This document shows positions 5,279 to 63,005 of a DNA stretch of 64,000 nucleotides, one piece after another (the first letter of the stretch is position 1; every line of letters begins with the position of its first letter). The DNA comes from Chloroflexota bacterium. GTDB taxonomy: Bacteria > Chloroflexota > Dehalococcoidia > UBA2247 > RBG-13-53-26. The stretch spans positions 66,716-130,715 of the forward strand of contig VGOM01000003.1 in the NCBI GenBank assembly GCA_016875915.1, given 5' to 3'. The position numbers and the translations under genes are program-made. The notes below the pieces were generated by a model that saw nothing but the letters and a program-made list of their open reading frames with translations, made no database searches and had not been told where the DNA came from.

Positions 5279-5351
5279 ATCGGCCTCCTCGACAACAGGC
5301 GGTTGAGACTGGAGCAGAGCCGGAGGACGGGCTCACCGGGGGCGGTCCTGG

Positions 5352-10395: not shown

Positions 10396-10404
10396 GCTGT
10401 CGAC

Positions 10405-11772: not shown

Positions 11773-11812
11773 GCTGAATCCTCCTCTATCTCAATGCAGT
11801 CCTATTCCGCAC

Positions 11813-13033
11813 CTAGATTGGCAGCTCTACCTCACCCTTTATCCAGGGGTGCCCCACCTTCTCCAGGAAGGCGGGAAGTTGGTCAACGGTCTTGACATCC
11901 TCTTCGCTGGCTATCTTGTCGTACAGGTCTGCCGGGATGACATCCTTGTAGCGTTCCTTGATGGCCTTGGGCATCCAGACTACTCTGCGCAGTCCGCCGT
12001 CTGCCTGGAAGAACTTCGGCGATCTGATCAGTTCCAGGGCCAGTCCGCAGGAACCCTCCACCTGTCTGCCGCCGGACGTTACCCCGGCCATCTTGGAGAA
12101 GGCCTCGCCGAGCAGCGTCGGCCCGACGAAATCCCTGTGGACGATGCCGAAGGCATCCACTTCTGGGATGTAGAACAGAATAGCCTGGAAGCAGCCACAG
12201 GAGGTGTGGGGGTGCTCAAAGGCGCTGTGGAGATAGACCCGATTGTATTCCCCCAACGATCTCTCGGCGACGCACTGATTGCAGCCACTGTATTCCCCCC
12301 TGCCGGGGTCCAGCAGTTCACCCTTCTCCACTCCGAAGATGGGACCTTCGGGATCCAGCTTGTAGGCCGCCTTGCCGTCAAACCAGTTGATGGCGCCGCA
12401 GTTGGCGATCCGCTCTGGAGTGATCACACAGCAGTGGGTGGGGGCGAAGCTCTGGCACAGGACGCAGCCGTAGAAGAGGTCCACGTCTTCTTCTCTCAGA
12501 CCCTTCAGCCTCTCATCCCTGGCCTCGTAGACCTTGAGGGCTTCGGCCAGCAACTCCTGGACCTTCTTCTCATCGGTGACCAGGGTGATCGATATCTTCT
12601 CGATGGCAGACAGCTCCGAGGTGTAGAGGAAGATCAGAATGTCCCCTACCTCCTTCAGGGAGTTGAGACCCTTCTTGAAGGAGGCCTTGCTCAACCTGAT
12701 CCAGACGTCGTTTCTCTGGTTCATGTGATACACGCCCTCTATGTAGTTGGCGTACATGTGCATCCGCCTCTCGATCACCGGCTCCATGTCCTTCTCTAGG
12801 GCCTCACCGGCGATATTGATCAGGATGGCTATGGGGTAGCTGGACCCCTCCGGCATATCCTTGATATCAGGTCCGATGACCTCCACCTTCTCGTGTTCGA
12901 TCTCATCGGGATTCTTCAGCGTCACCAGTTCGAACTTGGCCTTTGCCTTTGGACCGCCAAACTCGACCTGCATGTCCTCTTTGCGGATCACCTCGCCTTC
13001 ATACTGGGGCCCGATATCGACGTGAAACTCCAT
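11813..13033 (-). CDS. cdhC: acetyl-CoA synthase catalytic (A-cluster) subunit, archaeal-type CdhC (beta), short form of 406 aa
   Basis: A-cluster Cys-Gly-Cys (SCGCFQ) and upstream Cys ligands; operon context. Confidence 0.8.
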   Translation of the reverse strand: MEFHVDIGPQYEGEVIRKEDMQVEFGGPKAKAKFELVTLKNPDEIEHEKVEVIGPDIKDMPEGSSYPIAILINIAGEALEKDMEPVIERRMHMYANYIEGVYHMNQRNDVWIRLSKASFKKGLNSLKEVGDILIFLYTSELSAIEKISITLVTDEKKVQELLAEALKVYEARDERLKGLREEDVDLFYGCVLCQSFAPTHCCVITPERIANCGAINWFDGKAAYKLDPEGPIFGVEKGELLDPGRGEYSGCNQCVAERSLGEYNRVYLHSAFEHPHTSCGCFQAILFYIPEVDAFGIVHRDFVGPTLLGEAFSKMAGVTSGGRQVEGSCGLALELIRSPKFFQADGGLRRVVWMPKAIKERYKDVIPADLYDKIASEEDVKTVDQLPAFLEKVGHPWIKGEVELPI

Positions 13034-13034
13034 C

Positions 13035-13580
13035 CTATCCTTCCTCCTTCAATTTGGATACCAGGGTTTCCAGGAAACTCTTCCACTCCTCGTCCTTCCT
13101 GAAGTTCGGGAGTGAGAAATCAGCATTGGGGAACACGTATTTGCAGAGAGTCATGGTCTTCAAGTGGGGCGCGAAGTGCTTCAGAGTGGAGAGGCCCTGA
13201 TTCCCGAGGTCTGTCCTGATTCCGAAGAAGACCACCAGGTCGTGGTTGCCCTCCTTCCTGACGCCCTTCCAATCAGGATCCTTGAGGCGGTTGATTATCT
13301 CGACGACGTCATACTCGCTGTCGGGCTTGACCCCCAGTTCCATCATCTTGGCCCTGATGTGTGCCGTGGCGCATATCGGTGCCTTGGACGCCTTGGCTAT
13401 CTCCAGTGCGTATTCGACGAGGGACTTCCCGTCAAGGCAAGTGCCCAGCAATCTGGGGCCGAGCACGAATAGTGGTCGCTTCGCCCGCTTGATCGTGTCG
13501 GCAAACTCGGCAGCCTCGGTCACTACCTTGGCTCCCTTTGTCCCGGTTAGGACGTTGACCCTGTGAAGTGGCATCACCAT
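13035..13580 (-). CDS. cdhB: CODH/ACS epsilon subunit CdhB
   Basis: ~180 aa, positioned between cdhA and cdhC; typical CdhB size and composition. Confidence 0.7.
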   Translation of the reverse strand: MVMPLHRVNVLTGTKGAKVVTEAAEFADTIKRAKRPLFVLGPRLLGTCLDGKSLVEYALEIAKASKAPICATAHIRAKMMELGVKPDSEYDVVEIINRLKDPDWKGVRKEGNHDLVVFFGIRTDLGNQGLSTLKHFAPHLKTMTLCKYVFPNADFSLPNFRKDEEWKSFLETLVSKLKEEG

Positions 13581-13652
13581 AGCACTCGGTCCTCCTCGGT
13601 TGTCGACTCATGGCGTGTCGCGCGAATCATCAGTCTGCCCCCGTCACATTCC

Positions 13653-15965
13653 CTAGTGGATCACTGCTTCCAGAGGCACCTTGGTGGGATATGTGCCAAT
13701 CAGTGTGGGCAGGCTCAGAACGGGCTTGGGCTTCCAGCCGATCTCCTTGAGGTAGGTCAGTACCTCCTTCTTGTACACGATGGGGAGGTCCTTGTCGGTC
13801 CGGACATAGTGCTGCAGGTCCTCAGGCAGTCCGCTTCCCATATGCTTCTTGTACAGGGAGATGTAGTGATTGAGCTTGATCGCCCTGCCCTGCGGGGTGT
13901 CGTTCTTCCTGATACACAGCTTGGCGATGGTCACCATGGCTCGTTCCTTCGATTCCGTGACGTACACCAGGTGTTCTGGTGAAGGCTCCTCCGTGTCCAC
14001 GATTTCCCGTTTTCGCCCGTCCATGACCTTCCAGTCATCCTCGCCCTTCTTGCTGAGGTACAGTCTCCGGTATTTTGAGGAGTGAGGGCCGAGCAACACC
14101 GGGATGCCCATGCGGTTGCAGCCCGTGGCGATGGTGGCTGCCTTCTGGGAGTAGGCTCCCCAGGCCACTCCGCAGGCGCCCACGCGGTTGAGGATGTAGT
14201 CGGCGATAACCTCGTAGTTGCCCCTGAGAGGGAGGGTGGCGAAGATGTTGGCGATCTTTATGGCCGCCCCGGTGATGTGGGCATTGGCTACGCAGGAGCC
14301 CACGTTCACAACTCCTCCTGCGTCGAAGTTCCCCGGGAACCTCTCGTAGATCGTCTTTCCCTCGGCATCCTTCTTCATACCGGCCACCATAGCGGCGCAG
14401 CCGCTCATGACCACGATGTACTTCCTCTTGGCGAACTCCTCTGCCATCTCTACGATGTCGTCCACATCGGGGTAGTTGGAGCAGCCCACGAAGGCCACTA
14501 CCCCGGGGATGGTGCCGAGCACGATGGGGGCCCCGACGTTCCTGATCTCCGTGTCCATGATCGGGCCGCGTCCCGCCCTGACCTTGAAAGTATCGGTGCC
14601 GGCGACTGCCTGCATTATTCTCATTATGGGGATCTTGCGCGGGCAATCCTGATCGCACTTCCCACAGCCAATACACTCGTCAACCATCTGCCGCAGGGGC
14701 TCGAAATTGCCTTGCCCGGCCTGCCTTATCCCAGTCCCGATAGACATCAGGTTGGGACAGGCCCTCTCGCATATCTCGCATTCCCGACATGACTTGGCCA
14801 GCTCCTGGGCTTCCTTCTCGTCGAGGAGGTGCTTCCGTCTCTGTGGAGCCAGCTTCAGGGCCACCTTCACCGCCACCTCCCCGGCCTTCTCGTGGTCCAG
14901 GATGAGGTACTGCTTTCCTTCCTCGACCACCTTCTTCACGATCTCGTCGGCATCCATTTCGGTGGCGTCCTCGAAACCGTAGCAGGCCTTGTCCGAGGTG
15001 GCAATCATAGCGGTGCCCACCTTCTTGGCCTCTATGCCTACGTCAGTCCTGATGCACTGTTCATCCGTGACGATGACATCAGCTATCCCGGTCCTGACGT
15101 AGTAGAGCTGTCTGGAGAGCGGCCCGATCACCTTCGCCTTGTCGGCATATCTCGTGGTCTCCAGAGCGGTGCAGCAGATCCCGCCAACCTCCACCTTGTC
15201 GTACAGGTCGTTCTTGCGGAGATGGTCGATGATGTTCGTCGAGGTGGCGGGGTTGTGGCCGATGACCAGTATCGTCGGCTTGGCGATGTCCACACACGAG
15301 ACCCCAGCGTCGATCAAAGGCGTATCGGCAACCGAAGTTGGGTACTTGAAGCCGGTGATCTGGGCTATGTCGGCGGCTTCCATGACCACATGGTCCAGCA
15401 TGCCGGCATGAAGCGCCTTTGACTCGTAGTCCAGATTGCTGCCCTCCTGCCCCGTATTGAGGGCGGAAACCAGGTGGATCAGCTCACGTTCCGCGTATTC
15501 TACGGCCGTTCTCAGATCTGCCAGTGTCTCCGGCTTCAGGCCCAGCACTGTCCTGATGTTGGGGGCCTCAACGGCGACGTTGTCTCCCAGGTTGATCTTG
15601 CAGTCCTCGCCATGCTTCTCGATGAGGTAGTCGATGATATGCCGGGCATGGCCACCGTGGGCGGCCAGTCCCATACAGCAGGCCAGGAGCACGATCCTTC
15701 CCTGTTGACCGGCGATATCGATGCCGCAGGCTCCTCTCTTGCCCGCGGTGAGGTCGCACTTGCCGTAGGTGCAGAAACAGCACAGGTCGCAGAATGGTGC
15801 GTACCACGGAGCGTAGGTCTTCAGGAGCCTCATATCCCAGTTTCGCAGGTCGGCCACGTCTGGCATCGGCGTGGCGCCGATCGGCTCCCAGTTGTCTTCC
15901 GCCCTGATGATCTTCTCGATTTCCTTGCGTTTCTTGGTCTTCTTGTGTTCCGCTGTTTGCGTCAT
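13653..15965 (-). CDS. cdhA: carbon monoxide dehydrogenase catalytic alpha subunit CdhA (archaeal-type, with inserted ferredoxin domain)
   Basis: 770 aa. N-terminal Cys cluster CDLCCFCTYGKCDL; HcpC/CooS fold motifs; internal 2x[4Fe-4S] (CRECEICERACP, CIGCGKCDQDCP). Confidence 0.9.
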   Translation of the reverse strand: MTQTAEHKKTKKRKEIEKIIRAEDNWEPIGATPMPDVADLRNWDMRLLKTYAPWYAPFCDLCCFCTYGKCDLTAGKRGACGIDIAGQQGRIVLLACCMGLAAHGGHARHIIDYLIEKHGEDCKINLGDNVAVEAPNIRTVLGLKPETLADLRTAVEYAERELIHLVSALNTGQEGSNLDYESKALHAGMLDHVVMEAADIAQITGFKYPTSVADTPLIDAGVSCVDIAKPTILVIGHNPATSTNIIDHLRKNDLYDKVEVGGICCTALETTRYADKAKVIGPLSRQLYYVRTGIADVIVTDEQCIRTDVGIEAKKVGTAMIATSDKACYGFEDATEMDADEIVKKVVEEGKQYLILDHEKAGEVAVKVALKLAPQRRKHLLDEKEAQELAKSCRECEICERACPNLMSIGTGIRQAGQGNFEPLRQMVDECIGCGKCDQDCPRKIPIMRIMQAVAGTDTFKVRAGRGPIMDTEIRNVGAPIVLGTIPGVVAFVGCSNYPDVDDIVEMAEEFAKRKYIVVMSGCAAMVAGMKKDAEGKTIYERFPGNFDAGGVVNVGSCVANAHITGAAIKIANIFATLPLRGNYEVIADYILNRVGACGVAWGAYSQKAATIATGCNRMGIPVLLGPHSSKYRRLYLSKKGEDDWKVMDGRKREIVDTEEPSPEHLVYVTESKERAMVTIAKLCIRKNDTPQGRAIKLNHYISLYKKHMGSGLPEDLQHYVRTDKDLPIVYKKEVLTYLKEIGWKPKPVLSLPTLIGTYPTKVPLEAVIH

Positions 15966-15968
15966 GTC

Positions 15969-16874
15969 CTACCCCTGTTTGATGGTTTCTCTTACCAGCT
16001 TGAGTGTCTCGGGATGTCTCAACACCACCAGGTTTGCCCCGGCTAGGAGGAGGGAGATGGCGGTCATTCCTTCCCAGAGTATGCCCTGCTCCTTGTTCTC
16101 CTTGGCCTCCTTGGTCTTCCAGCACTCGCCTGCCACGTCGGCGATGATCGGCATCTGTGTCTGGGCGTCCTTGAAGATGACCCCGGTCTGCTTCGTTCTC
16201 TCCATGATGGTGAAGGTGTATTCCATGCCATACCCCAGGGCTGAACTCAGGGGGTCAATGACGACCCTGTCAGCGGGGAAGACCTTGGACAGTTTGATGT
16301 TCAGCTCTTTCATCAGGTTGATGTCCAGCGGGCTCTGAGCGATTATGGCATGGCCATTCTCTGCCGCAGCCTTGGCGATCACCTCGTAGTTCTCCTTCAC
16401 CACCGGGCCGAGGAGCAGGTTTTCGCCCTTGCACACTTCAGCCACCTTGGACAGCACCTGGGCGTCCTTCTTGTCGTCCTTTGACCCGCAGACGATCAGC
16501 GGTGCTCCCACTGCATCAGCCACCTTCTTGACCAGCTGTGCTGCTCCCTCTGCTGGGGCATTCTTGCCCGCCGGGTCGGTGCTCTCCAGTACCAGACAGA
16601 TGGCGTCCGCTCCATAGTCCAGGCACTTCTTGGCCCACTTGACGGGATCGGATATCACGTCTTGGAACGGTTCCAGGACCCACTTGGCCCATCCCTCTGG
16701 CGGTGAATCGAAGACTTGGAGGGCGAACTTGGGCGGGTTGGGTATGGAGCCCTCGTCGAAGAAATGGAAGGGGAGGGCATTCTCCCCGCCTATCTTCAAA
16801 GCCTTGGGGCCTTTGCCGATGGCAACCTCTCTGACCTTCCCGGTGTATGACTCGACTGCTGCTTTGTACTCCAT
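15969..16874 (-). CDS. cdhD: corrinoid iron-sulfur protein small subunit CdhD/AcsD (delta)
   Basis: 301 aa TIM-barrel protein directly upstream of cdhA; N-terminus MEYKAAVESYTGKVREVAIG resembles AcsD. Confidence 0.85.
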   Translation of the reverse strand: MEYKAAVESYTGKVREVAIGKGPKALKIGGENALPFHFFDEGSIPNPPKFALQVFDSPPEGWAKWVLEPFQDVISDPVKWAKKCLDYGADAICLVLESTDPAGKNAPAEGAAQLVKKVADAVGAPLIVCGSKDDKKDAQVLSKVAEVCKGENLLLGPVVKENYEVIAKAAAENGHAIIAQSPLDINLMKELNIKLSKVFPADRVVIDPLSSALGYGMEYTFTIMERTKQTGVIFKDAQTQMPIIADVAGECWKTKEAKENKEQGILWEGMTAISLLLAGANLVVLRHPETLKLVRETIKQG

Positions 16875-16900
16875 AGTCTGTCCCTTCTCCTTTCCTGTCT

Positions 16901-17815
16901 CTAGTCCTCCAACCAGGAATGGGAATATAGCGTCTGCCCCAGGAGGATCTGGGCTGTCTTCACATAGTCACGCTGCTTCTTGGAGAGGCTCGAGAGTACG
17001 ATATGTTCCTCGTCCATTGCCTTGTGGATGAGTTCGATGATGTCAGGCATCTTGCCCTGGTCTAGAGCCATTAGCTCCGCATCCAGGGGGTCGGCGATGG
17101 CGGAGTACAGTCCGTTTCGTTTCAGCATCATCAGGTAGGTGCGGTTGATGATCCCTCTGAGTTCCTCGGGTGTTCCATTGGACACATTTGAAAGGCCCAC
17201 TGTGGATTTGATGTCAGGCAGGATATCAGGCAGTATCTTGATGAACTCCAGGTCCGCGGTCACCTGTGTCTGGTCCGCGCTCACTGGCAGTACGATCGGA
17301 TCGACCCAGATGTCCTCGTTGGGGATGCCCAGTTCGTTGGCGTAGGCCACCGTGTCCAGGATGCTCTCTGTCCTCGATTCCACATCAGGCGGGCAACCCT
17401 TGTCTGTGAGCACTGACAGGACCACGGCAGTGTTGTACTTCTTGGCTAGGGGCAGCGTCTTCTCCTTGCTGTCGGTTCGCCCTGACGCCGAGTTGAGCAG
17501 TGGTCTCTTCTTGCTGGCCTTCAGACCTGCCTCCATGGCGATGGGATTCAGGGTATCTATCGACAACGGCAAATCGGACACGGCCTGCACGGTGTTCACC
17601 AGCCACTCCACGGTCTCCTCGGGGTTCTTCCTCGCTGGACCTATGTTCAGGTCCAGGTAATCCGCGCCTGCCTTGGTCTGAGCTATGGCCAGATCCTGGA
17701 TTACCTTGGCGTTTCTCTCCTTCACTGCTGTGGAGACTTCCTTGGAGATGATGTGGATATTCTCACCGATGATGATCACTGAGTACCTCCTTGCGTATTC
17801 TGAATGGCACGCCAA
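16901..17815 (-). CDS. acsE: methyltetrahydrofolate:corrinoid/iron-sulfur protein methyltransferase AcsE (pterin-binding, MtrH-like)
   Basis: 304 aa. Pterin-binding barrel motifs IIGENIH and DYLDLN; first gene of the operon. Confidence 0.85.
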   Translation of the reverse strand: MACHSEYARRYSVIIIGENIHIISKEVSTAVKERNAKVIQDLAIAQTKAGADYLDLNIGPARKNPEETVEWLVNTVQAVSDLPLSIDTLNPIAMEAGLKASKKRPLLNSASGRTDSKEKTLPLAKKYNTAVVLSVLTDKGCPPDVESRTESILDTVAYANELGIPNEDIWVDPIVLPVSADQTQVTADLEFIKILPDILPDIKSTVGLSNVSNGTPEELRGIINRTYLMMLKRNGLYSAIADPLDAELMALDQGKMPDIIELIHKAMDEEHIVLSSLSKKQRDYVKTAQILLGQTLYSHSWLED

Positions 17816-51438: not shown

Positions 51439-52218
51439 TCAGCCCGGGAAGGACAGGCCGCCGCTGACGCTGAAGATCTGCCCGGTGATCTGGTTGGATT
51501 CCTCTGCAGCCAGGAACAGGGTCAGTTGGGCGATGTCCCCCGGCCGGTTCATCCCGAAGGGCATTCGCTCCTCGGCCTTCTTGAAGATCCGGTAGATATG
51601 GCTGGTGGGGTCGGCCATGGCATAGTCGTAGCCCGGGGTGTCCTTGGTCACCGTGGTGCAGATGGTGTTGACCCGTATCTGCCACCGGGCTGTCTCCTGG
51701 GCGATCACTTTGGTCATCAGCACCAGCCCCGCCGCGGCCCCCCCGATCAGCGACTCCCTGGGGGTCGGCGTCCTTCCCGCGTCCGTGGTGATCATGATGA
51801 TCTTCCCCTGCTGCCTTTCCATCATGTGGTCCAGCACGGCCCGCACGCAGTAGAGCCGGGACAGCAGGTGACTCCTCACCGTGTCCACGTACAGCCCCGG
51901 GTCGATCTTGACGAAGAACTCCGGCGGCGCTCCGCCCCCCGCCCCGCTGGCCACCAGGATGTCCACCCGGCCGCACCTCCCCACCGCCCGGTCCACCATC
52001 CGCTTCACTTGCTCATAGTCCCAGATGTCGGCCTCCTCAAAGCTGGCCTGCCGTCCCATCCCCCGGATCTCCTCCAGGACCGGCCGGGCCTGTTCCTCGC
52101 TCCGCCCGTTCAGCACCACCTCCGCCCCGTTCCGCGCCAGGGTAAGGGCCACCGCCCTGCCGATGCCCTTGGTCGATCCGGTGACCAGCGCCACCTTGCC
52201 CGTCAGGTCTGCCTGCAT
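51439..52218 (-). CDS. SDR-family oxidoreductase
   Basis: TGSTKGIGRAVA, NGR and YxxxK-like motifs. Confidence 0.8.
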   Translation of the reverse strand: MQADLTGKVALVTGSTKGIGRAVALTLARNGAEVVLNGRSEEQARPVLEEIRGMGRQASFEEADIWDYEQVKRMVDRAVGRCGRVDILVASGAGGGAPPEFFVKIDPGLYVDTVRSHLLSRLYCVRAVLDHMMERQQGKIIMITTDAGRTPTPRESLIGGAAAGLVLMTKVIAQETARWQIRVNTICTTVTKDTPGYDYAMADPTSHIYRIFKKAEERMPFGMNRPGDIAQLTLFLAAEESNQITGQIFSVSGGLSFPG

Positions 52219-52374
52219 GCTCTGCCTCCCTCGAAGAACTGCTAGGTCATGCTATAGAACCCAAGCCCTCGCCGCAAGTCCCCCGCCGCAGGCGGGCCCG
52301 TCCAAAGTGGCGGCCCCGGCCCGACAACCGCTACACTAGTACCTTGGGCGCAGATCAACGCGAAAGGACGGACC

Positions 52375-54378
52375 ATGAGAACACTCACCAAGCTCTTCCA
52401 GCCCATCAGGATCGCCGATGTTCGGGTCAAGAACCGCATCGTCATGTCCCCCATGGGACTGGGCCGGGCCACCGTGGACGGCTACGTCACCGACGGCATG
52501 GTCGACTTCTACATCGAGAGGGCCAGGGGTGGGGCCGGACTGATCTACGTTGTCTGCGGCTACAACGACTTCTGCGTCTACCTGCCCACCATCCCCGCCC
52601 TGGAGGACGACAAGTTCCTTCCCGGACTCAGGAGGCTCACCGGCGCCATGCACGAGCACGGCGCCAAGGTCTTCGCCCAGCTGATGAGCATGGGTTCATC
52701 CAGCTTCGGCATGCCCGGTGGCATCCCCCAGCCGGCGCCCTCGGCCATCCTCAACACCCTCACCAAGTGCATGCCCCGGGAGATAACCACCGCCGAGGTC
52801 AGGCTGCTCGTCGAGCATTTCGCTGAAGGTGCCTGGCGCGCCAAGGAGGGCGGCTTCGACGGCGTGGAGCTCTGCGGCAACGGCGGCTACATCATGAACC
52901 AGTTCCTCTCCCCGCTGACCAACCAGCGCACCGACGAGTACGGCGGGGATTTCGAGAGGCGGACGAGGTTCCCCATCGAGGTCGTCCGGGCCATCAGGAC
53001 CAGGGTCGGACCGGGCTACCCCATCTCCTACCGGGCCTCCGGCGATGACTTCATGGAGGGCGGCAACCGCCGCGAGGAGGTCAAGGCCGTGGTCAGGGCC
53101 CTGGAGAAGGCCGGCATCGACCTCATCAACGTCACCGCCGGCTGGCACCAGTCCTTCCTGCCCCTGGCCTCCATGGACGTCCCCCGCGGCACCTACGTCT
53201 ATCTGGCCCACGGCATCAAGCAGGAGGTCGGCCTCCCCGTCATCGCCTGCAACCGCATCAACAACCCCTTCCTGGCCGAGCAGATCCTGGTTAACGGCCA
53301 GGCGGACATGATCGGCATGGGCCGCCCCTTCCTCACCGACCCCGAATGGCCGAAGAAGGCCGCCGAGGGACGCTACGACGAGATCCGCCAGTGCACCGCC
53401 TGCGACCAGCGCTGCCTCGATGCCGTCTTCTCCCTCAAGGAGATCACATGCACCTTCAACCCCGCCGCCGGCAGGGAGAAGCAGTACGCCCTCATCCCCG
53501 CCCCGAAGATGCGCAAGGTCCTGGTCATCGGCGGCGGTCCCGCCGGCATGGAGGCCGCCCGCACCCTGGCCCAGCGGGGCCACCGGGTCACCCTGTACGA
53601 GAAGTCCCACAGGCTCGGCGGCCAGTTCAACCTGGCCGCGGTGCCCCCCGGCCGGGGCGAGTTCGCCTCCGCCGTGGACTTCATGGCCCGGGAGCTCTAC
53701 CGGGTCGGCGTCAGGGTGGAGCTGGGCCATGAGGCCAGCGCGGATACAGTCAAGAAGCACCGGCCCGACGCCGTGATCATCGCCACCGGCGCCACCCCCC
53801 TGCACCCCGACATCCCCGGTATAGACGGCGGCAACGTCTTCGGCGCCTGGGAGGTACTGGAGCGCAAAGCCGCTCTGGGCAAGCGGGTGGTCGTCATCGG
53901 TGGCGGGGCGGTGGGCATGGAGACAGCCCTGTTCATCGCCCGCCAGGGCCCCCTGTCCGCTGAATCGGCCGTGTTCCTTGCCCTGGGCGAAGGACTGGAT
54001 GCCCAGGCCGCCGTCCAGTTGCTCCGCAGTGGCCCCGAGGTCACCATACTGGAGATGCTCGACCGCATCGGCCAGGATATGGGGCCGACCACCCGGTCCT
54101 CCATCAGGTTCGCCTTGCGCCAGCACGGGGTGAAGGTCATCACCCGGGCCAAGGCCCGCCGCATCACTCAGGCCGGCGTCATCTACCAGCTCGGCGGCAA
54201 AGAGGCTCTGGCCGAGGCGGACGCCGTGGTCATCGCTATGGGCGCTAGGCCGGAGAACCGCCTCTTCGAAGCCCTTCAGGGCCTGGTCCCCGAGGTCTAC
54301 AGCATCGGCGACTGCGTCAAGGCCCGGACCGCCTGTGAAGCCATCGAAGAAGGCGCCCTCATCGCCCGCCAGATCTAG
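52375..54378 (+). CDS. Old-Yellow-Enzyme-family FMN oxidoreductase fused to FAD/NAD(P)-binding domain (2,4-dienoyl-CoA reductase/enoate reductase-like)
   Basis: N-terminal OYE TIM barrel (RIVMSPMG); CxxC...C [4Fe-4S] linker (CTACDQRC); GGGPAG and GGGAVG Rossmann motifs; 667 aa. Confidence 0.85.
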   Translation: MRTLTKLFQPIRIADVRVKNRIVMSPMGLGRATVDGYVTDGMVDFYIERARGGAGLIYVVCGYNDFCVYLPTIPALEDDKFLPGLRRLTGAMHEHGAKVFAQLMSMGSSSFGMPGGIPQPAPSAILNTLTKCMPREITTAEVRLLVEHFAEGAWRAKEGGFDGVELCGNGGYIMNQFLSPLTNQRTDEYGGDFERRTRFPIEVVRAIRTRVGPGYPISYRASGDDFMEGGNRREEVKAVVRALEKAGIDLINVTAGWHQSFLPLASMDVPRGTYVYLAHGIKQEVGLPVIACNRINNPFLAEQILVNGQADMIGMGRPFLTDPEWPKKAAEGRYDEIRQCTACDQRCLDAVFSLKEITCTFNPAAGREKQYALIPAPKMRKVLVIGGGPAGMEAARTLAQRGHRVTLYEKSHRLGGQFNLAAVPPGRGEFASAVDFMARELYRVGVRVELGHEASADTVKKHRPDAVIIATGATPLHPDIPGIDGGNVFGAWEVLERKAALGKRVVVIGGGAVGMETALFIARQGPLSAESAVFLALGEGLDAQAAVQLLRSGPEVTILEMLDRIGQDMGPTTRSSIRFALRQHGVKVITRAKARRITQAGVIYQLGGKEALAEADAVVIAMGARPENRLFEALQGLVPEVYSIGDCVKARTACEAIEEGALIARQI

Positions 54379-55628: not shown

Positions 55629-56297
55629 CTACGGTGCTTTCAGAACCATGAAGGAGAAGGAGTTCTGGATCTTGGATCCGCATTCATCGTAGATCTGCAC
55701 GGACAGCCGGCCTCCCGTGCTCCCGTAGCCTGCACCACGTGCGGCACTGAATGTGGGAGTGATTATCGTCACGAAGCTATTGCACTCGTATGAGATGCCA
55801 GATAGCGCAATCAGATAGCGGCAATGGTTGCTGTCCCAGGCGCAACTGTCGACGTTGAACCCATAGTCGATGGCTCCGCTTTCACCTATAGCGCCCATGG
55901 CAACTATCATGTTTGGCCCGGGCTCTCCCTGGGTACCCTGCACTCCCTGGTCGCCCGTGTCACCCTTCGCTCCCTGCGGACCTTGTTCCCCCTGAACCCC
56001 CTGCATGCCTTGAGGACCCTGCTCTCCGATCTCGCCCTTGACGCCTTGAACACCCTGCATTCCCTGTTCGCCCTGGGCTCCTTGTGGTCCCGGCGAACCC
56101 ATCATGCTGCCTGTCCTGTACATGCCACCATCGGTCAGATTGATGGTAATGGTGCCGTCGGCGTTGCTCACCACGCTCTCAATCCCAACCCCTGGTGGCC
56201 CCTGTTTGCCCCTGGCCCCCGCACAAGCACTGCCTACAGTTGCGCCAGCGACCAGCAGTAGTACCACCCCGACAGTCACGAGCTTGAAGAAACGCAT
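55629..56297 (-). CDS. secreted collagen-like triple-helix repeat protein
   Basis: Signal/anchor MRFFKLVTVGVVLLLVAGATVGSACA; about 25 G-x-y triplets, then a ~90-aa Cys-containing C-terminal domain. Confidence 0.7.
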   Translation of the reverse strand: MRFFKLVTVGVVLLLVAGATVGSACAGARGKQGPPGVGIESVVSNADGTITINLTDGGMYRTGSMMGSPGPQGAQGEQGMQGVQGVKGEIGEQGPQGMQGVQGEQGPQGAKGDTGDQGVQGTQGEPGPNMIVAMGAIGESGAIDYGFNVDSCAWDSNHCRYLIALSGISYECNSFVTIITPTFSAARGAGYGSTGGRLSVQIYDECGSKIQNSFSFMVLKAP

Positions 56298-56436: not shown

Positions 56437-56712
56437 TCACAAGTGGTGGAAGAAGATGAGCAGGGCGTCGCCCTCATTGAGCGGTCCGTCGCGCTCGTCG
56501 TCCGGCAGCCTCTCTCCGTTGCTGAAGAACCATATCTGCGGGCGGATCATCCCCGCTTCGTCGTAGGCCCAGCGCTTCATCGAAGGGAACCTCTCCGCCG
56601 TGGCCCGGAGGCACTCAGTGGCGCTGCACGCCTCTACCTCGAATGCTTCCAGATCGCTGCTCAACTGGCTCAGATGGCGCAGCAGCCGCGATATGGTCAC
56701 CCTGATCTTCAT
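56437..56712 (-). CDS. MoaD/ThiS-like beta-grasp protein lacking the C-terminal Gly-Gly
   Basis: Alignable to the MoaD pattern (MKIRVTISRLL...GDALLIFFHHL versus ...GDEVAIIPPVSGG); sits downstream of acr3. Confidence 0.4.
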   Translation of the reverse strand: MKIRVTISRLLRHLSQLSSDLEAFEVEACSATECLRATAERFPSMKRWAYDEAGMIRPQIWFFSNGERLPDDERDGPLNEGDALLIFFHHL

Positions 56713-56737
56713 CGGCTTCTCATCCGACGCCCCCGCG

Positions 56738-57835
56738 CTACCCGTGGGAGGCCGCCGCCCGACCTGGTTCCCCGCCGAAGTACCGCCGCTTGAAGTAGAG
56801 CGACACATTCACCAGGCTGATCAGCACCGGCACCTCCACCAGCGGCCCGATCACCGCTGCAAACGCCACTCCCGAGCCGATGCCGAACACCGCCACCGCC
56901 ACCGCGATAGCCAGTTCGAAGTTGTTGCTGGCGGCTGTGAAAGCGATGGTGGCTGTCTTCGAGTAGTCGGCCCCAACCCTCTTGCCCATGTAGAATGAGA
57001 CCAAGAACATCGCCACGAAGTAGATCAGCAGCGGGATGGCGATGCGCACCACGTCCAGAGGCTGATCCACTATCTCTTCCCCTCTGAGTGAGAACATCAC
57101 CACAATGGTGAAAAGCAGAGCGACAAGGGTCATCGGGCTGATGTTCGGGATGAACCTGCTTTCGTACCACTGCCGCCTCTTCGCTCTGAGCAAGGCAAAG
57201 CGGGTGAGCATCCCGCCAAAGAAGGGGATGCCCAGGTAGATAGCCACACTCCGGGCGATCTCTGCCATGGTCACCTCCACTGACGCCCCCTCCAGGCCGA
57301 ATTTGGGCGGCAGAACGGTGACGAACACGTAGGCGTACACGGAGTAGAACAGTATCTGGAAGATGGAGTTGAAGGCCACCAGACCGGCTGCATACTCCGT
57401 ATTCCCCTTGGCCAGCTCGTTCCACACGATGACCATGGCGATGCAGCGGGCCAGGCCCATCATGATCAGTCCCACCATGTAGTCCGGGTAGTCCCAGAGC
57501 ACCCCCAGGAACAGTATCGCCAGGAAGAACATCAGCACCGGGCCGATGACCCAGTTCTGCACTAGTGAGAGCCCCAGCACCCGCCAGTTGCGGAACACCC
57601 GGCCCAGCTCCTCGTACCTCACCTTCGCCAGAGGTGGATACATCATCAGGATCAGCCCGATGGCGATGGGTATTGAGGTGGTGCCCACCTGGAAGCGGGT
57701 GATGGTGTCGGCCACCTCGGGAACGAAGTTGCCCAGCCCCACTCCCAGCGCCATGGCCAGGAATATCCACAGCGTCAGGAAGCGGTCGAGCAGAGAGAGC
57801 CGGCCCATTCGGGTTCCCGGTTTGGTGTTGCTCAT
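56738..57835 (-). CDS. acr3: ACR3-family arsenite efflux permease
   Basis: Polytopic; [10 protein letters not shown] and MMYPPLAKV motifs typical of the ACR3/ArsB(Acr3) family. Confidence 0.85.
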
Positions 57836-57941
57836 CCCCCGGTTCGCAGCCACTCCATTCCAGCGACCTGTCTGGGACGTTCTATCTTGCTTCTCCCCCG
57901 ATGCCCCTGATTGGCTGATCTCCACTCAACTTCAGCAATCA

Positions 57942-58781
57942 TCACCCCAGCAGCTTGGCCAGCGCCTGGCGGTCGGCAGCGGCCTCAGGCTCACCCAGCG
58001 GCGGGCACTCCTCAAGGCGGGCCTTCCCCTTGGCCAGATCTATGGCGAAGGCCAGACAGGTCTTCCGGCCACACTCGCGGCAGTTGGTCTGCGGCAGGAA
58101 TTTGTTCATGGCCAGGCCCATGCCCATCTTCGACTTGCCCGGCTCGATGGCATGCTGCGGTTTGTGCTCCTGCAACACTGACGCGATCTTGTGGAACAGC
58201 GCCGGCTCCGGATACGCCCCCATGTCATGCACTGTGTAGCCCCTGAACACCACCGGATTCTCCTGGAAACAGCTCCAGACGGCCTTCTCTACTACCTTGG
58301 GGTCAAGCCCGGGTGACTTGGTATCGGTCTCTCCCGGGCGGCACAGCAGGCTGACGATGGTCACTATCTGCTTGTTGAATCTCTCGATCACCTCCACAGG
58401 GATGTTGTGCAGATATGGAGTCGGCGCTGTCGATCCGATGACCTGCTTCTTGTCATCAACACCGTTCCTCTTCAATGCCAGCAGCGTTTCCCCCGGCAGA
58501 TGCCCGGAGGACTCCCTGCCGCAGAGCACCAGATACCGGATATTGGGGTTGGCCACGATGTTGCATAGCATCTTCTCCGTGCCCACGTTCTCCGTCTGCA
58601 GCATGCCCGACAGCGCCGCCCCGGCGTCCATCCCTGCCAGAACCAGCGACTGCAGCTCGGGGGGAATCTTGAAGTCGAAATCGTCCAGGATCACGCAGAC
58701 TGCTACCGGGGAGAAGTCATTGCCCCTGACATAGCGCCCCGGCTCAGGAGGATAGCCCTCTGGCGGCTTCACTTTCAGCAT
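57942..58781 (-). CDS. MtrA-like corrinoid-binding domain fused to a CFeSP-type N-terminal [4Fe-4S] domain
   Basis: Blocks close to methanogen MtrA (PVAVCVIL, QTENVGTEKMLCNIVANPNIRYLVLCGRESSGH, NGVD, HNIPVEVIERF). C-terminal CRECGRKTCLAFAIDLAKGKARLEECP resembles the N-terminus of CdhE at 10405..11772. GGAGG RBS. Confidence 0.75.
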   Translation of the reverse strand: MLKVKPPEGYPPEPGRYVRGNDFSPVAVCVILDDFDFKIPPELQSLVLAGMDAGAALSGMLQTENVGTEKMLCNIVANPNIRYLVLCGRESSGHLPGETLLALKRNGVDDKKQVIGSTAPTPYLHNIPVEVIERFNKQIVTIVSLLCRPGETDTKSPGLDPKVVEKAVWSCFQENPVVFRGYTVHDMGAYPEPALFHKIASVLQEHKPQHAIEPGKSKMGMGLAMNKFLPQTNCRECGRKTCLAFAIDLAKGKARLEECPPLGEPEAAADRQALAKLLG

Positions 58782-58906
58782 CACGACTCGCCTCCAATTA
58801 TCAGGTATGGATACCCCCCTTGACAAAGCCCGGTGGTCGTAATATGATATGTCTCGATATATCGAGATATTACCCGATATAGTTCAAACCAGCAAGGGAG
58901 TTGGGC

Positions 58907-59404
58907 ATGTTCAGAACACACAGAATGTTCCACGACCACTGGCAGGAAAGCCCGTTTCAACGAGGAGACCTGAAGTACGTCATACTGGATCTGATAAAGG
59001 ACAAACCCCGTCATGGGTACGAGATCATACAAATCCTGGAGGAACGCTCTCACGGCTTCTACAAGCCCAGCCCCGGCGCCATCTACCCCACACTTCAACT
59101 CCTGGAAGAGATGGGCCACATTGAGGTCACTCATCAGAACGGTAAGAAGGTCTACACCATAACCGATGAGGGCAGACGCTTCTTGTCTGACCGTGAGCAC
59201 TTCGCAGACGGCATCAAGAGACAGATGAGGGATTGCTGGGGCAAAGGCAATGCTTCAGAGATGCGGGAGACCATGGCCGAGATAGGCAGGATCGGCAGGA
59301 TCGTTGGCAGGCGTTTTCGCAACTTGGACGCCGACAAGATGAACCGCATTCGCGAGGCCATCTCCAGGGCCCGCAAAGACATCGAGGCCATACTCGAGGA
59401 CTAG
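58907..59404 (+). CDS. PadR-family transcriptional regulator
   Basis: Winged HTH motif YVILDLIKDKPRHGYEIIQILEE...GAIYPTLQLLEEMG; divergent from the mtrA-like/acr3 operon. Confidence 0.75.
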   Translation: MFRTHRMFHDHWQESPFQRGDLKYVILDLIKDKPRHGYEIIQILEERSHGFYKPSPGAIYPTLQLLEEMGHIEVTHQNGKKVYTITDEGRRFLSDREHFADGIKRQMRDCWGKGNASEMRETMAEIGRIGRIVGRRFRNLDADKMNRIREAISRARKDIEAILED

Positions 59405-59420
59405 AAGGGAGGGAAACGGA

Positions 59421-59897
59421 ATGAGCGACATGAGTGACATGATGAAGGCCATGTTGGGCAGCATGAGCAAAGAGGAGAAGCTGGGGATGATGAGTACCAT
59501 GATGGAGACCTTCTTCGCCGGCGTGTCGGTCCAGGATAGACAGAAGATGATGGAGCAGATGATGCCGAAGATGATGGAAGGGGTCAACATGATGGAGATG
59601 ATGCCCAGGATGATGATGGGCATGATGCCAGCTATGATGGGCAGAAGCGAAGGCAGGGAAGGGATGACCCCGGTGATGGGCGGCTGTCACGGAGAGGGTA
59701 TGGGTATGATGCCGCAGATGATGGTCCAGATGATGCCGAACTGCGTCAAGATGATGCTTCCCGGTATGCCCAAGGAAGAGCGTATGGACTTTGTCTCCAA
59801 TATGGTCGCCACCCTGGTGGAGCAGGGCTCGGCCGGAATGTCGGAGGAAGAGAAGAGCGAGTTCGTGGCCAGGATACTGGAGAAGGTAACCTCCTGA
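59421..59897 (+). CDS. methionine-rich protein (~40 of 158 residues Met; MMP/MMxxMM repeats; one Cys-His pair)
   Basis: Strong GGGAGGG RBS 16 nt after the padR stop; GC3-rich codons on this strand, while the antisense His-rich ORF has T-rich third positions. Confidence 0.6.
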   Translation: MSDMSDMMKAMLGSMSKEEKLGMMSTMMETFFAGVSVQDRQKMMEQMMPKMMEGVNMMEMMPRMMMGMMPAMMGRSEGREGMTPVMGGCHGEGMGMMPQMMVQMMPNCVKMMLPGMPKEERMDFVSNMVATLVEQGSAGMSEEEKSEFVARILEKVTS

Positions 59898-60385: not shown

Positions 60386-61807
60386 ATGATAGGAATCTGT
60401 TCGTACGGCGCATATGTACCCCTTTACAGACTGGCCCGGGAGATCATGGTCCTTGAGGGCAAAGGGGGTGCAGGCGAAAGGGCGGTTGCCGGGGCCGATG
60501 AAGATGCCCTGACCATGGCCGTTGACGCCATCCTCGACTGCACCAAGGGTATGGACCGCGGCTCGGTCGAGGCGCTGCTCACTGCCACCACCTCATCGCC
60601 GTTTGCGGAGAAGCAGTTGGCCGCCGCCGCAGCAGCCGCAGTCGATCTCAACGACAACATCATCACCGCTGACCTCACCGCTTCGCTCAAGGCGGGGCTG
60701 ACCGCCCTGAAGCTGGCCGCCGACATGGTCAAGGCCGGCTCGGCCAAGAAGGTCATGGTCGCCGCCACCGACTGCCGCCTGGGCACGCCGCTGTCCCCCG
60801 TGGAGTCCAACTCCGGCGACGGCGCCGCCGCCCTGCTCGTCGGTGACAAGGACGCCATCGCCACCATCGAAGGCTTCTACACCTTCGCCACCGACTTCAC
60901 CGACACCTGGAGGCCGGCCACCGACAAGTTCGTCCATGTCTGGAGCGACCGGTTCACCGTTGCCGAAGGCTACACCCCCATGATGCAGAAGGCCATCGCC
61001 GCTGCCATGAAGAAGTTCGGGGTCGAGGCCAAGGACATCTCCAAGCTGGTCTACAGCGGTCCCGACGCCAGGACCCATGCCGGCATCGCTGCCGCCCTGA
61101 AGTTCGACCCCAAGACCCAGTTACAGGACGGCCTCTTCGGTGTCATGGGCAACACCGGCGCTGCCTTCCCCCTGATGCTCCTGGTCGCCGCTCTGGAGCA
61201 GGCCAAGCCGGGTGACACCATCCTGGTCGCTGCCTGGGGTGACGGCGTGGACGTCATGCTTCTCAAGGTCACCGACGCCATCGAGAAGGCCAGGGACAGG
61301 CACGGTGTGCTGGGCTATCTGAAGTCCAAGAAGATGCTCCCCAGCTACGTCAAGTACCTCCGGCTGCGCCACCTCTTCTACTATGAAGCCTCCCGGATGA
61401 CCCCCATCACCCCAGGGTTGGCACAGCTCTGGAGGGAGAGGGACTCGATGTACAAGCTGCATGCCAGCAAGTGCAAGCAGTGCGGCTGGCTGGAGTTCCC
61501 CATCCGCCGCATCTGCCCCAAGTGCTACTCCAAGGACAGCTACGATCAGGTGAGACTGCTGGAGCAGAAGGTCAAAGTGTACAGCTTCAGCACCGATACC
61601 ATCCCCACCATCCCCGAGGTCACCGACCCGCCGCTGGGCCGGGCCATCGTCGACTTCGAGGGCGGTGCCAGGCTGGAGCTTGAGATGACGGACTTCGGCA
61701 ACATCCAGGATATGAAGATTGGTCAGCCCATGGAGATGACCTTCCGGAGGCTGGAGAGGCAGGGAGACGTCGCTGCCTATGCCTGGAAGTGCAAGCCGGT
61801 GCGATAA
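60386..61807 (+). CDS. HMG-CoA-synthase-like (thiolase-fold) domain fused to a DUF35 zinc-ribbon/OB-fold domain
   Basis: N-terminal GICSYGAYVPLYRL, as in archaeal HMGCS; C-terminal CKQCGW...CPKCYS zinc ribbon + OB. The position of the catalytic Cys appears to be Ser/Leu (TASLKAG). Confidence 0.7.
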   Translation: MIGICSYGAYVPLYRLAREIMVLEGKGGAGERAVAGADEDALTMAVDAILDCTKGMDRGSVEALLTATTSSPFAEKQLAAAAAAAVDLNDNIITADLTASLKAGLTALKLAADMVKAGSAKKVMVAATDCRLGTPLSPVESNSGDGAAALLVGDKDAIATIEGFYTFATDFTDTWRPATDKFVHVWSDRFTVAEGYTPMMQKAIAAAMKKFGVEAKDISKLVYSGPDARTHAGIAAALKFDPKTQLQDGLFGVMGNTGAAFPLMLLVAALEQAKPGDTILVAAWGDGVDVMLLKVTDAIEKARDRHGVLGYLKSKKMLPSYVKYLRLRHLFYYEASRMTPITPGLAQLWRERDSMYKLHASKCKQCGWLEFPIRRICPKCYSKDSYDQVRLLEQKVKVYSFSTDTIPTIPEVTDPPLGRAIVDFEGGARLELEMTDFGNIQDMKIGQPMEMTFRRLERQGDVAAYAWKCKPVR

Positions 61808-61817
61808 GAAGGAGGAA

Positions 61818-63005
61818 ATGATGGGTACCATAAAAGACAAAGTTGCCATAGTCGGAATGGGTTGCACCAATTTCGGGGACCTCTGGAGCAAAGGCGTCTC
61901 CGACATGATCATCGACAGTGCCTACGAGGCCTACCAGGATGCCGGGGTCGGACCCAAGGACATCGAGGCGGTTTTCGTCGGCAACGTCTCCTCCAGCATG
62001 TGGACCGGGGCCACGGTGACCGAGGCCCTTCAGTTGGACAAGATCCCCGCCACCAGGGTGGAGAACAACTGCGCCACCGCCGCCGAGGCTCTCAGGGTGG
62101 GTGCCTTCTCCATCGCCGCCGGCATGTACGACACCGTCCTCTGCGTCGGCTTCGAGAAGCTGAAGGACTACGGCAGCGGCGCTCTGGAGATGCCCGGCTC
62201 GCTGCACCCCATCTCTGTGGTCGGCTCGGCGCCTGGCTCCTTCGCCAAGTCTGCCGTGCAGTACTTCGAGAAGTACCAGATCCCCTTCCAGAAGGGCAAG
62301 GAGATGCTGGCCAAGATCGCCGTGAAGAACCACGCCAACGGCGCCCTGCACCCCAAGGCCCACTTCCGCCGGGCCATCACCCTGGAGACGGCCATGAATG
62401 CCCCCATCATCGCCTGGCCGCTGGGGCTCTTCGACTGCTGCCCGGTCACCGACGGGGCGGCCTGCGCCGTCATCACCAGCGCCGAGAAGGCCAAGGCCAT
62501 GAAGAAGCCCCACGTTCTGATCAAGGGACTGGGACTGGCCGTCGGCCGCATAGACCCGTTCAAGGGCAAGTTCCGCTCCGATGTTGACATCACCTTCTGG
62601 GACGAGACCTGGGCGGCGGCCCAGCAGGCCTATCAGCAGGCCGGGGTCAAGGACCCCCGCACGGAGATCGGCTCCGCCGAGGTCCACGACTGCTTCACCA
62701 TCACTGAGCTGATCATCTACGAGTCGCTGGGATTCTGCCCCCGCGGCAAGGGCCCCGAAGAGGTGGAGAAGGACTCCTTCACCCTGACGGGTGATCTGCC
62801 GGTCAACACCGACGGCGGACTGAAGTCCTTCGGCCATCCAGTTGGCGCCAGCGGTCTGCGCATGGTCTACGAGCTGTACAACCAGCAGCTTGGCAGAGCC
62901 GACAAGCGGCAGCTGAAGAATCCCAAGCTCGGTCTGGCCCATTCCCAGGGCGGCACGCCGGGCATGTTCCAGGCGTCTGTGACCATCGTTGGTCCCGGTA
63001 ACTAG
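61818..63005 (+). CDS. SCP-x-type (nonspecific lipid-transfer) thiolase
   Basis: VAIVGMGCT active-site Cys region; C-terminal HxxGAxG (GHPVGASG); AAGGAGG RBS. Confidence 0.85.
   Translation: MMGTIKDKVAIVGMGCTNFGDLWSKGVSDMIIDSAYEAYQDAGVGPKDIEAVFVGNVSSSMWTGATVTEALQLDKIPATRVENNCATAAEALRVGAFSIAAGMYDTVLCVGFEKLKDYGSGALEMPGSLHPISVVGSAPGSFAKSAVQYFEKYQIPFQKGKEMLAKIAVKNHANGALHPKAHFRRAITLETAMNAPIIAWPLGLFDCCPVTDGAACAVITSAEKAKAMKKPHVLIKGLGLAVGRIDPFKGKFRSDVDITFWDETWAAAQQAYQQAGVKDPRTEIGSAEVHDCFTITELIIYESLGFCPRGKGPEEVEKDSFTLTGDLPVNTDGGLKSFGHPVGASGLRMVYELYNQQLGRADKRQLKNPKLGLAHSQGGTPGMFQASVTIVGPGN

Follow-up and report, generated by a model that had tools for sequence, protein, structure and literature searches.

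The subject of this analysis is a five-gene region of a 64-kb stretch of contig VGOM01000003.1 (the whole stretch of 64,000 nucleotides is hereafter called the window), which belongs to a metagenome-assembled genome (MAG) of an uncultured member of the Dehalococcoidia, phylum Chloroflexota. Its central gene, mtrA-FeS, encodes a fusion of an MtrA-type cobalamin-binding domain and an iron-sulfur (Fe-S) domain that is found beside the arsenite pump gene acr3 in a wide range of genomes, and the protein probably belongs to the arsenic-handling machinery of anaerobes, as a component not yet described. The region as a whole is best explained, with confidence that is about evenly balanced, as two neighbouring modules, namely a minus-strand arsenic operon with the gene order mtrA-FeS, acr3 and a moaD-like gene, and a plus-strand pair of padR followed by a gene for a methionine-rich (Met-rich) protein. 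All five genes and the divergent spacer were confirmed by an open reading frame (ORF) map and profile searches at the positions given below, and gene calls on six identical metagenome contigs contain the identical five-gene set. A first-pass annotation made from the sequence alone had described an arsenic cluster with unusual accessory proteins; this description was borne out, and its five domain calls all proved correct in profile searches and in AlphaFold2 (AF2) modelling with Foldseek comparison.

Relatives of the fusion protein were collected by a word-index search, which returned 2,197 sequences. The best 120 of these 2,197 were all full-length fusions with at least 71% identity, the source-named entries among them being labelled Chloroflexi or Dehalococcoidia, and the full-length family corresponds to approximately one cluster at 50% clustering. 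For the analysis of gene neighbourhoods, a scan of GTDB species representatives was used, yielding 80 loci (47 FeS-fused and 33 unfused) in which ars-type genes were mapped by tblastn. ACR3 was located within 5 kb in 43 of the 47 fused loci, typically 13-140 bp downstream, and at least one ars-type gene was present in 45 of them, the exceptions being mostly contig ends. Members with as little as 59% identity still show the linkage, among them some from loci labelled Deltaproteobacteria; the gene order varies while proximity is kept. This partnership of MtrA-FeS and ACR3 is widespread, conserved and apparently undescribed. Because of the 43/47 linkage, for which the chance expectation was roughly estimated by us at less than 1% per locus, chance adjacency is effectively excluded. 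It is accordingly very improbable that the adjacency is a passenger effect and MtrA-FeS a housekeeping corrinoid protein unconnected with arsenic, a reading for which it can be said that 13 of the 33 unfused loci have no ars genes and that the MtrA-like domain also occurs fused to thymidylate-synthase-like domains. Judged from the sequences and their neighbourhoods, MtrA-FeS is likely to have some direct arsenic-related function.

The usual setting of mtrA-FeS is a long ArsR-led arsenic island. In its typical order, genes for ArsM, ArsR, an ArsP_1 permease, Thioredoxin_3, small proteins and an Fe-S protein are followed by those for an ArsF-family protein, a DsbD/ArsE-like protein, a PKD protein, MtrA-FeS, ACR3 and an ArsP_1+YHS permease. 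The island neighbours are bona fide ars genes (ArsM by NF008823 with 335 bits, the ArsF family by NF040494 with 95 bits), and ACR3, ArsR and ArsP_1 are likewise among them. One locus (L044) shows the order mtrA-FeS, arsM, acr3. The ArsF-family protein, at 3582-4768 of L007 and at equivalent positions elsewhere, is encoded beside DsbD_TM and PKD-domain proteins and thioredoxins. These Dehalococcoidia islands resemble the ArsEFG organoarsenical system. The islands also carry a 181-aa protein with a PF04060 Fe-S domain. In the plasmid collection, only DUF4346 proteins on Planococcus plasmids were found, and these had no ars context.

The mtrA-FeS gene (57942-58781, minus strand; 279 aa) is preceded by a GGAGG ribosome-binding site 9 nt upstream of its ATG. 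Residues 1-146 of the protein form an N-terminal MtrA-type cobalamin-binding domain (Pfam MtrA PF04208, 2e-36), and over residues 3-147 the protein shares about 50% identity with MtrA of Methanothermus fervidus (5LAA) and M. marburgensis (8Q3V). The C-terminus is a [4Fe-4S] domain of the type known from the corrinoid/iron-sulfur protein (CFeSP), with the ligand pattern C234-x2-C237-x4-C242-x16-C259 (PF04060, 52 bits, 4.6e-14); residues 222-266 match residues 5-47 of the CFeSP large subunit, where its N-terminal [4Fe-4S] domain lies (2H9A, 4C1N, 4DJD; 1e-9). In M. fervidus MtrA, cobalamin is contacted by His84 as the cobalt ligand, Glu54 as a hydrogen-bond relay, and Asn55, Thr53, Gly57, Asn64 and Tyr18 (Wagner et al., PMC4915002). 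By alignment to the PDB sequences, Tyr18, Thr53, Glu54, Asn55, Gly57, Asn64 and His84 correspond to Y17, T63, E64, N65, G67, N74 and H94 of MtrA-FeS, and none of the seven varies in the family alignments A1 and A3, nor do the four cysteines of the CX2CX4CX16C motif vary in the family. Since all cobalamin contacts and Fe-S ligands are invariant, the cofactor chemistry is argued to be under selection. MtrA-FeS is predicted to bind cobalamin in the base-off/His-on mode, as MtrA does, and in its architecture, as read from the sequence, it is a single-chain miniature corrinoid/iron-sulfur protein. Beyond MtrA, the family has gained an 11-residue insertion and an extension of about 75 residues that bears C147 and C171, and it possesses four family-specific invariant cysteines (C29, C73, C147 and C171). 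None of the 80 loci departs from H94 or C171, and no ACR3-linked member lacks C73.

The unfused MtrA-like relatives originate from Spirochaetota, deltaproteobacterial (Desulfobacterota-type) MAGs, Methanosarcinales, Bathyarchaeia and others. They are linked to ars genes in 20 of 33 loci and stand beside ACR3 in 11, and are also found beside ArsR or ArsM. In L075, a Ca. Methanospirareceae MAG, the stop codon of arsM overlaps the start codon of an MtrA-like gene; this archaeal island (1757-6021) contains two MtrA-like paralogues, the first coupled to arsM and preceded by a Met-rich gene, the second following arsR and an ArsP_1 permease. The domain also occurs in other fusions. At about 8001-8864 of L071 (Ca. 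Alkanophaga) it is C-terminally fused to an ArsR-type HTH_20 domain (34 bits), in L067 it is fused to GYF_2, and the versions of Methanosarcinales and Methanolliviera MAGs have a similar winged-helix-like C-terminal tail, as judged by eye. Several of the archaeal loci with C-terminal fusions (L071, L065, L083, L079, L064, L067 and L080) lie beside ACR3, ArsR or ArsP. Fusions to ferredoxin, TusA and thymidylate-synthase-like domains were seen in P0158, P0159, P0164, P0165, P0167, P0126 and P0130, with a 2x[4Fe-4S] ferredoxin in P0126 and the thymidylate-synthase-like domains in five representatives. Together these proteins suggest that MtrA-type corrinoid modules form a broader, unstudied family beyond methanogenesis.

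Two roles that do not involve methyl transfer can be read from these features. In the first, the MtrA-like domain would serve chiefly to bind As(III), as a chaperone or sensor with structural or redox-gating cofactors; its cysteines would pass As(III) to ACR3 as ArsD does to ArsA, or it would control DNA binding through a fused winged helix. The four family-specific cysteines, the retention of C73 and C171 in all ACR3-linked members, the HTH_20 fusion with the similar Methanosarcinales tails and the very short distance between mtrA-FeS and acr3 all fit this role. It is nevertheless considered unlikely, as it leaves the invariance of every cobalamin contact and Fe-S ligand against it, and the fusion to a helix-turn-helix domain is no proof of sensing, since enzyme-regulator fusions of ArsR and ArsM are described (PMC10190100).

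In the second, MtrA-FeS would be a B12/Fe-S reductase which converts arsenate or pentavalent or organic arsenicals to the trivalent form exported by ACR3 or ArsP-type permeases, in functional resemblance to the cobalamin/[4Fe-4S] reductases typical of Dehalococcoidia (reductive dehalogenases, QueG). The fusion of an Fe-S domain to the cobalamin domain, repeated as a second fusion in P0126, would suit a reductase, and so would an operon with no methyltransferase partner, the lack of arsC in the window and most islands, and the position of the gene just ahead of the pump gene. The fold of reductive dehalogenases and QueG differs from the MtrA type, which counts against this role. Moreover, mtrA-FeS is directly preceded by a pI258-type arsC in L018, L020, L021, L030, L051, L060 and L090, and a simple replacement of ArsC by MtrA-FeS was rejected on account of these at least seven loci. 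The His-on MtrA-type binding mode is also known only from methyl transfer (PMC4915002), and we regard a reductase as improbable.

From the near-obligate position of mtrA-FeS as neighbour of ACR3 in Dehalococcoidia arsenic islands, we infer a corrinoid-dependent anoxic step on arsenic. MtrA-FeS would act as a cytoplasmic corrinoid carrier whose own [4Fe-4S] cluster could re-reduce the cobalt, and ACR3 exports As(III). The likeliest step would be methyl transfer between cobalt and arsenic held by C29, C73, C147 and C171; in the forward direction this would be a methylation of As(III) independent of S-adenosylmethionine (SAM), in the reverse direction a demethylation that frees As(III) for the pump. 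According to our own chemical reasoning, His-on methyl-cob(III)alamin gives CH3+ to nucleophiles, and thiolate-held As(III) would be such a nucleophile, and in the reverse reaction pentavalent methylarsenicals would be the substrates and As(III) would become available to ACR3. We tentatively propose, as a candidate function, that MtrA-FeS transfers methyl groups to or from arsenic in a corrinoid-dependent manner. The fuller proposal, in which MtrA-FeS and its unfused relatives would constitute the SAM-independent, cobalamin-dependent arsenic methyltransferase/demethylase of strict anaerobes, with the Met-rich and beta-grasp (moaD-like) proteins as dedicated accessories, is conceivable and rather doubtful.

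Several observations weigh against methyl transfer. The operon has no gene for a methyltransferase partner (MtrH, MtaA/B or pterin-binding type), and ACR3 exports As(III) and not methylated species, so that the logic of pairing it with a methylase is not obvious. A SAM-dependent arsM is already present within 5 kb in about a quarter of the fused-family loci, for which reason a second methylase would be partly redundant there. The equivalent of Glu54 is replaced by proline in some ACR3-linked unfused members, and C73, mapped from PMC4915002, adjoins the pocket of the nucleotide tail and not the upper corrin face. Finally, the AF2 model of the fusion, based on a low-diversity alignment of 24 sequences, reached a mean predicted local distance difference test (pLDDT) score of 41.6, due to which the geometry of the cysteines and the cobalt is not readable from it.

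A corrinoid system is also encoded elsewhere in the window. A complete archaeal-type carbon monoxide dehydrogenase/acetyl-CoA synthase (CODH/ACS) cluster occupies 9640-17815 on the minus strand and comprises, as named by eye from the translations, genes for a CooC-like ATPase, the CFeSP large subunit (10405-11772), CdhC-like, CdhB-like and CdhA-like proteins, the CFeSP small subunit (15969-16874) and a pterin methyltransferase; 13653-15965 lies within the Cdh-like stretch. The large subunit carries an Fe-S domain of the same type as MtrA-FeS, and the GC content falls to 57-60% where the cluster lies, with an AT skew that is strongly negative. The presence of this system indicates that the organism uses corrinoid methyl chemistry.

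The pump gene acr3 (56738-57835, minus strand; 365 aa with the ATG at 57835; PF01758) follows mtrA-FeS after a gap of 106 nt. The product reaches 457.3 bits with the TIGR00832 equivalog (cutoff 282.8). An alternative upstream GTG start at 57925 is possible, the gene calls on the identical contigs ranging from 365 to 371 aa. The translation carries ARCIAMV and PLVEVPV; in studies of CgAcr3 and AmAcr3 a conserved transmembrane Cys (R-C-I-A-M-V) and a Glu (V-E-V-P) were reportedly required for transport. In L120 a MauE/DoxX membrane protein is encoded between mtrA-FeS and acr3 (1457-2647), and in L015 the two genes are about 985 bp apart (at about 1444-2429), a comparable distance; set against these, the short gap in the window suggests a deletion. 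A second ACR3 clade, 34-37% identical to the window protein, also adjoins mtrA-FeS (L007 at 6853-7926, L022, L023, L031, L033, L036, L037, L039, L044 and L049) and passes the ACR3 equivalog at 360 bits.

The padR gene (58907-59404, plus strand; 165 aa) encodes a PF03551 winged helix (74 bits, cutoff 27) with a C-terminal helical extension, and is separated from mtrA-FeS by a divergent spacer of 125 bp (58782-58906). A consensus scan of the spacer identified a near-consensus padR promoter, TTGACA-17-TATGAT, at 58820-58848 on the plus strand (11 of 12 positions). On the minus strand the sole candidate was TTGTCA-18-GATAAT (58797-58826), a weak call for the mtrA-FeS operon; since its -10 box abuts the ribosome-binding site, leaving a leader of near-zero length, this promoter is doubtful. 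With a repeat finder and by orthologue comparison, a putative PadR operator was located at 58846-58883. It is built from the palindromic octamer GATATATC, repeated four times with 10-bp phasing from 58846 onwards (GATATGTC, GATATATC, GATATTAC and GATATAG), a motif with no other occurrence in the window and 0.03 matches expected by chance. The operator palindrome for which the first-pass annotation had suggested a search in the spacer is present as an 11+11 inverted repeat at 58849-58870, directly after the padR promoter and inside the repeat array.

A metagenome scan with PadR found nine orthologous loci with 43-74% identity. In seven of the eight orthologues examined (L104-L110, 61-70% identical), TTGACA-N17 and a -10 box are accompanied by two to four copies of GATATATC with 10-bp spacing, and the position of the repeats relative to the -10 box is the same whatever gene lies upstream; in the 43% identical PadR of L112 the repeats are absent. 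The genes upstream of padR elsewhere include arsM (L108), 23S rRNA (L106), an AMP-ligase gene (L107) and CoA-transferase genes (L115-L118). As the repeats are kept on the padR promoter regardless of the neighbour, they are interpreted as the phylogenetic footprint of a padR autoregulatory operator, and in the window the predicted operator overlaps padR's own promoter. PadR would repress this promoter via the phased GATATATC repeats, which extend over the -10 box and the point where transcription starts, and the Met-rich protein would be the product so regulated. Judged by its varied contexts, the padR/Met-rich pair is a self-contained module that is found beside unrelated genes elsewhere.

The nearest relatives of the minus-strand operon are organized without PadR. 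In L113 (mtrA-FeS 86% identical) arsR, a permease gene, thioredoxin genes and dsbD precede mtrA-FeS; L120 (also 86%) has the order mtrA-FeS, MauE/DoxX, acr3 (92%) and moaD-like gene (76%); in L015 (81%) the 610 bp available upstream contain no padR. With PadR missing from these closest relatives with usable context, the adjacency of padR and the acr3 operon is lineage-specific, and this outcome of the padR-acr3 linkage comparison is the one that the first-pass annotation had itself named as speaking against its reading. Its view of a distinct module stands for the pairing of MtrA-FeS and ACR3 (43 of 47 species) and falls for PadR as a part of it; PadR as regulator of the acr3 operon gained no support, the operator following the padR promoter and the closest operon relatives having no PadR. 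Control of the divergent acr3 operon by PadR is thus possible but not supported.

A single PadR-controlled regulon of all five genes, directed at methylated arsenic, antimony or copper/silver and with the Met-rich protein as soft-metal buffer, is judged to be quite unlikely. The back-to-back promoters, the distance of 20-57 bp between the operator and the divergent -35 box and the recurrence of Met-rich homologues beside ars or corrinoid genes (L013/L014, L075, L108, L097-L099) are in its favour. It is opposed by an operator that tracks padR, by the occurrence of the pair elsewhere next to CoA-transferase genes or an rRNA operon, and by nearest mtrA-FeS relatives without PadR, L113 using ArsR instead; moreover, copper or silver genes are lacking and the sequence of the Met-rich protein shows no signal peptide.

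The Met-rich gene (59421-59897, plus strand; 158 aa) starts 16 nt after the padR stop codon. Its product is a predicted cytoplasmic protein, roughly one-quarter of which is methionine, as estimated from the translation. No Pfam family was matched, and the single NCBIfam match was non-significant (TsoA, E = 0.012). The family has 246 members, and its alignment (A4) shows the motifs MMPKMMEG.NMMEMMP and MMPxC..MLP..PKEER and a single invariant cysteine, C108. The N-terminus, MSDMSDMMKAM..., is hydrophilic and not a signal peptide, and the neighbourhoods examined contain no copper genes; on these two grounds, and with the pump being an ACR3 equivalog, the copper/silver role considered in the first-pass annotation is unsupported. 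A homologue directly follows PadR in six of the nine PadR-orthologue loci. Within an ArsR operon of L013/L014 a homologue is encoded between mtrA-FeS and acr3, in L075 one lies upstream of arsM and the MtrA-like gene, in L097-L099 (3278-5468) one directly follows the genes for a thymidylate-synthase-like protein and a B12-binding (PF02310) protein, and the padR/Met-rich pair of L108 has arsM as its divergent neighbour. The Met-rich gene consequently stands beside a corrinoid protein gene in four independent arrangements (the window, L013, L075 and L097-L099), and its other contexts have no link to ars or corrinoid genes. This association with corrinoid and ars genes, looser but recurrent, is a lead and not a finding.

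The last gene of the minus-strand operon (56437-56712; 91 aa) encodes a beta-grasp protein of the MoaD/SAMP type. Its AF2 model (pLDDT 82) was matched by Foldseek to SAMP1 (4hro, TM 0.76), MoaD (1fm0) and Urm1, and the NCBIfam SAMP1 model gave a weak match (4e-4). The protein ends in FFHHL with no C-terminal Gly-Gly; its family has 18 members, and all 14 aligned ones end in FFHHL/V, FFHQL or FFNHV, none with Gly-Gly. Due to this lack of Gly-Gly in the family, sulfur-carrier or modifier chemistry was excluded. An E1-like, MoaE or ThiG partner was not seen among the window ORFs at 52-64 kb, for which no dedicated search was made. A moaD-like gene also follows ACR3 in L100-L103 (80% identity) and L120 (76%), and the best explanation is an accessory specific to the subclade of the window. 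A distant beta-grasp relative (hhalign probability 94%), encoded in a different ars island at 6023-6307 of L050, ends in ...SGGCCG, that is Gly-Gly followed by Cys-Cys-Gly, an ending which the window protein does not have. The small Cys-Cys protein of the islands (hyp87/92) was rejected as a beta-grasp relative with an hhalign probability of 0.2%.

Elsewhere in the 64-kb window, tblastn gave no match to ArsR, ArsC, ArsM, an ArsP-type permease or DsbD, so that the absence of arsR and arsC pointed out in the first-pass annotation is confirmed for the window, and the Rfam search found no riboswitches or other RNA families in it. Just downstream of the operon, at 55629-56297 on the minus strand, a collagen-triple-helix repeat protein with GxQGxQ repeats and an N-terminal hydrophobic segment is encoded; it has its own promoter-like site (56360-56331) and is kept in this position on the identical contigs. 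The flanks at 60386-63005 and 51439-54378 resemble fatty-acid or aromatic-type CoA metabolism, unrelated to metals, with ketoacyl-synthase-like (473 aa), thiolase-like (408 aa), Old-Yellow-Enzyme/2,4-dienoyl-CoA-reductase-like (667 aa) and short-chain dehydrogenase products.

In anoxic soils and sediments, methylation and demethylation of arsenic control its toxicity and mobility, including in rice straighthead disease. The enzyme for anaerobic arsenic demethylation is described as unidentified, corrinoid systems of methylotrophic methanogens being suspected (PMC10579292); ArsI, the only known demethylase, requires O2, and the anaerobic route has been ascribed to unidentified corrinoid enzymes (PMC10579292; bioRxiv 2026.08.27.747368). 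A B12/Fe-S protein beside ACR3 across Dehalococcoidia and other ars clusters represents a concrete and testable candidate for this route. If the proposal is true, MtrA-FeS would supply the enzyme still lacking from the anoxic methyl cycle of arsenic and would be to arsenic what HgcAB is to mercury, and it would serve as a new marker gene for arsenic surveys, its present annotation being "tetrahydromethanopterin S-methyltransferase subunit A". MtrA homologues are known to be present in some bacteria (Wagner et al., PMC4915002), and a full-text literature search returned no paper linking MtrA-like proteins to ars genes, the matches to "MtrA" referring mostly to the Shewanella decahaem cytochrome. 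The locus is an ars cluster with a new cofactor-bearing component, and it could be more if the methyl-transfer chemistry is confirmed.

Compared with known systems, the plus-strand module resembles autoregulated PadR repressors in its winged helix, in the putative operator over its own promoter and in the small effector gene predicted in the same transcript, but the putative operator is here an array of two to four phased GATATATC octamers and the partner is a soluble Met-rich protein instead of a phenolic-acid decarboxylase or membrane protein. Unlike the periplasmic Met-motif proteins for Cu(I)/Ag(I) (CusF, PcoC/CopC, SilE/PcoE), this partner has neither a signal peptide nor a copper/silver linkage. 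With canonical ars operons (arsR-acr3/arsB-arsC with or without arsM, arsD and arsA) the minus-strand module shares a bona fide ACR3 pump and, in other genomes, ArsR-led islands with ArsM, ArsC, ArsP-type permeases and ArsEF-like genes. It differs in that arsR, arsC and arsM are lacking from the window and that B12/Fe-S and GG-less beta-grasp proteins are added, neither of which occurs in the ars systems of the searched literature.

MtrA-FeS itself shares with MtrA (5LAA, 5L8X, 8Q3V) the Rossmann-type MtrA fold family, about 50% identity over 145 residues and the cobalamin contacts. It differs by having no transmembrane anchor, the C-terminus being an Fe-S domain without hydrophobic helix, and by the 11-aa insertion, the Cys-bearing extension and the [4Fe-4S] domain; TIGR01111 gives 118 bits (cutoff 249). 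Instead of an mtrEDCBAFGH operon in a methanogen, the neighbours are acr3 and padR in a Chloroflexota/Dehalococcoidia MAG, and the context is arsenic resistance and not methanogenesis. With CFeSP (AcsC/CdhE and AcsD/CdhD) it has in common a cobalamin carrier combined with a CX2CX4CX16C [4Fe-4S] domain. In MtrA-FeS, however, the Fe-S domain is C-terminal and not N-terminal, the B12 domain is of the MtrA type and not of the CdhD/TIM-barrel type, and the single chain of 279 aa does not have the full architecture of the large subunit (TIM barrel and B12 domain, about 445 aa). NF003195 gives 54 bits (cutoff 306) in a match limited to residues 237-285, and the real CFeSP of the organism is encoded separately at 10405-11772 and 15969-16874.

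The closest parallel to the proposed function is HgcAB, in which a corrinoid protein and an Fe-S electron-transfer module deal with a toxic soft element, a likeness that we infer at the functional level only. HgcAB is ArsR-controlled and tied to arsenic resistance in P. mercurii (10.1101/2022.10.17.512643). HgcA has a CFeSP-like corrinoid domain with a cap-helix Cys as cobalt ligand, transmembrane helices and the ferredoxin HgcB as partner, whereas the corrinoid domain of MtrA-FeS is unrelated, of the MtrA type with a His ligand and without a transmembrane segment, and no mercury connection was seen in our data. Taken together with HgcAB, MtrA-FeS suggests that anaerobes have repeatedly met toxic soft elements with combined B12 and Fe-S modules.

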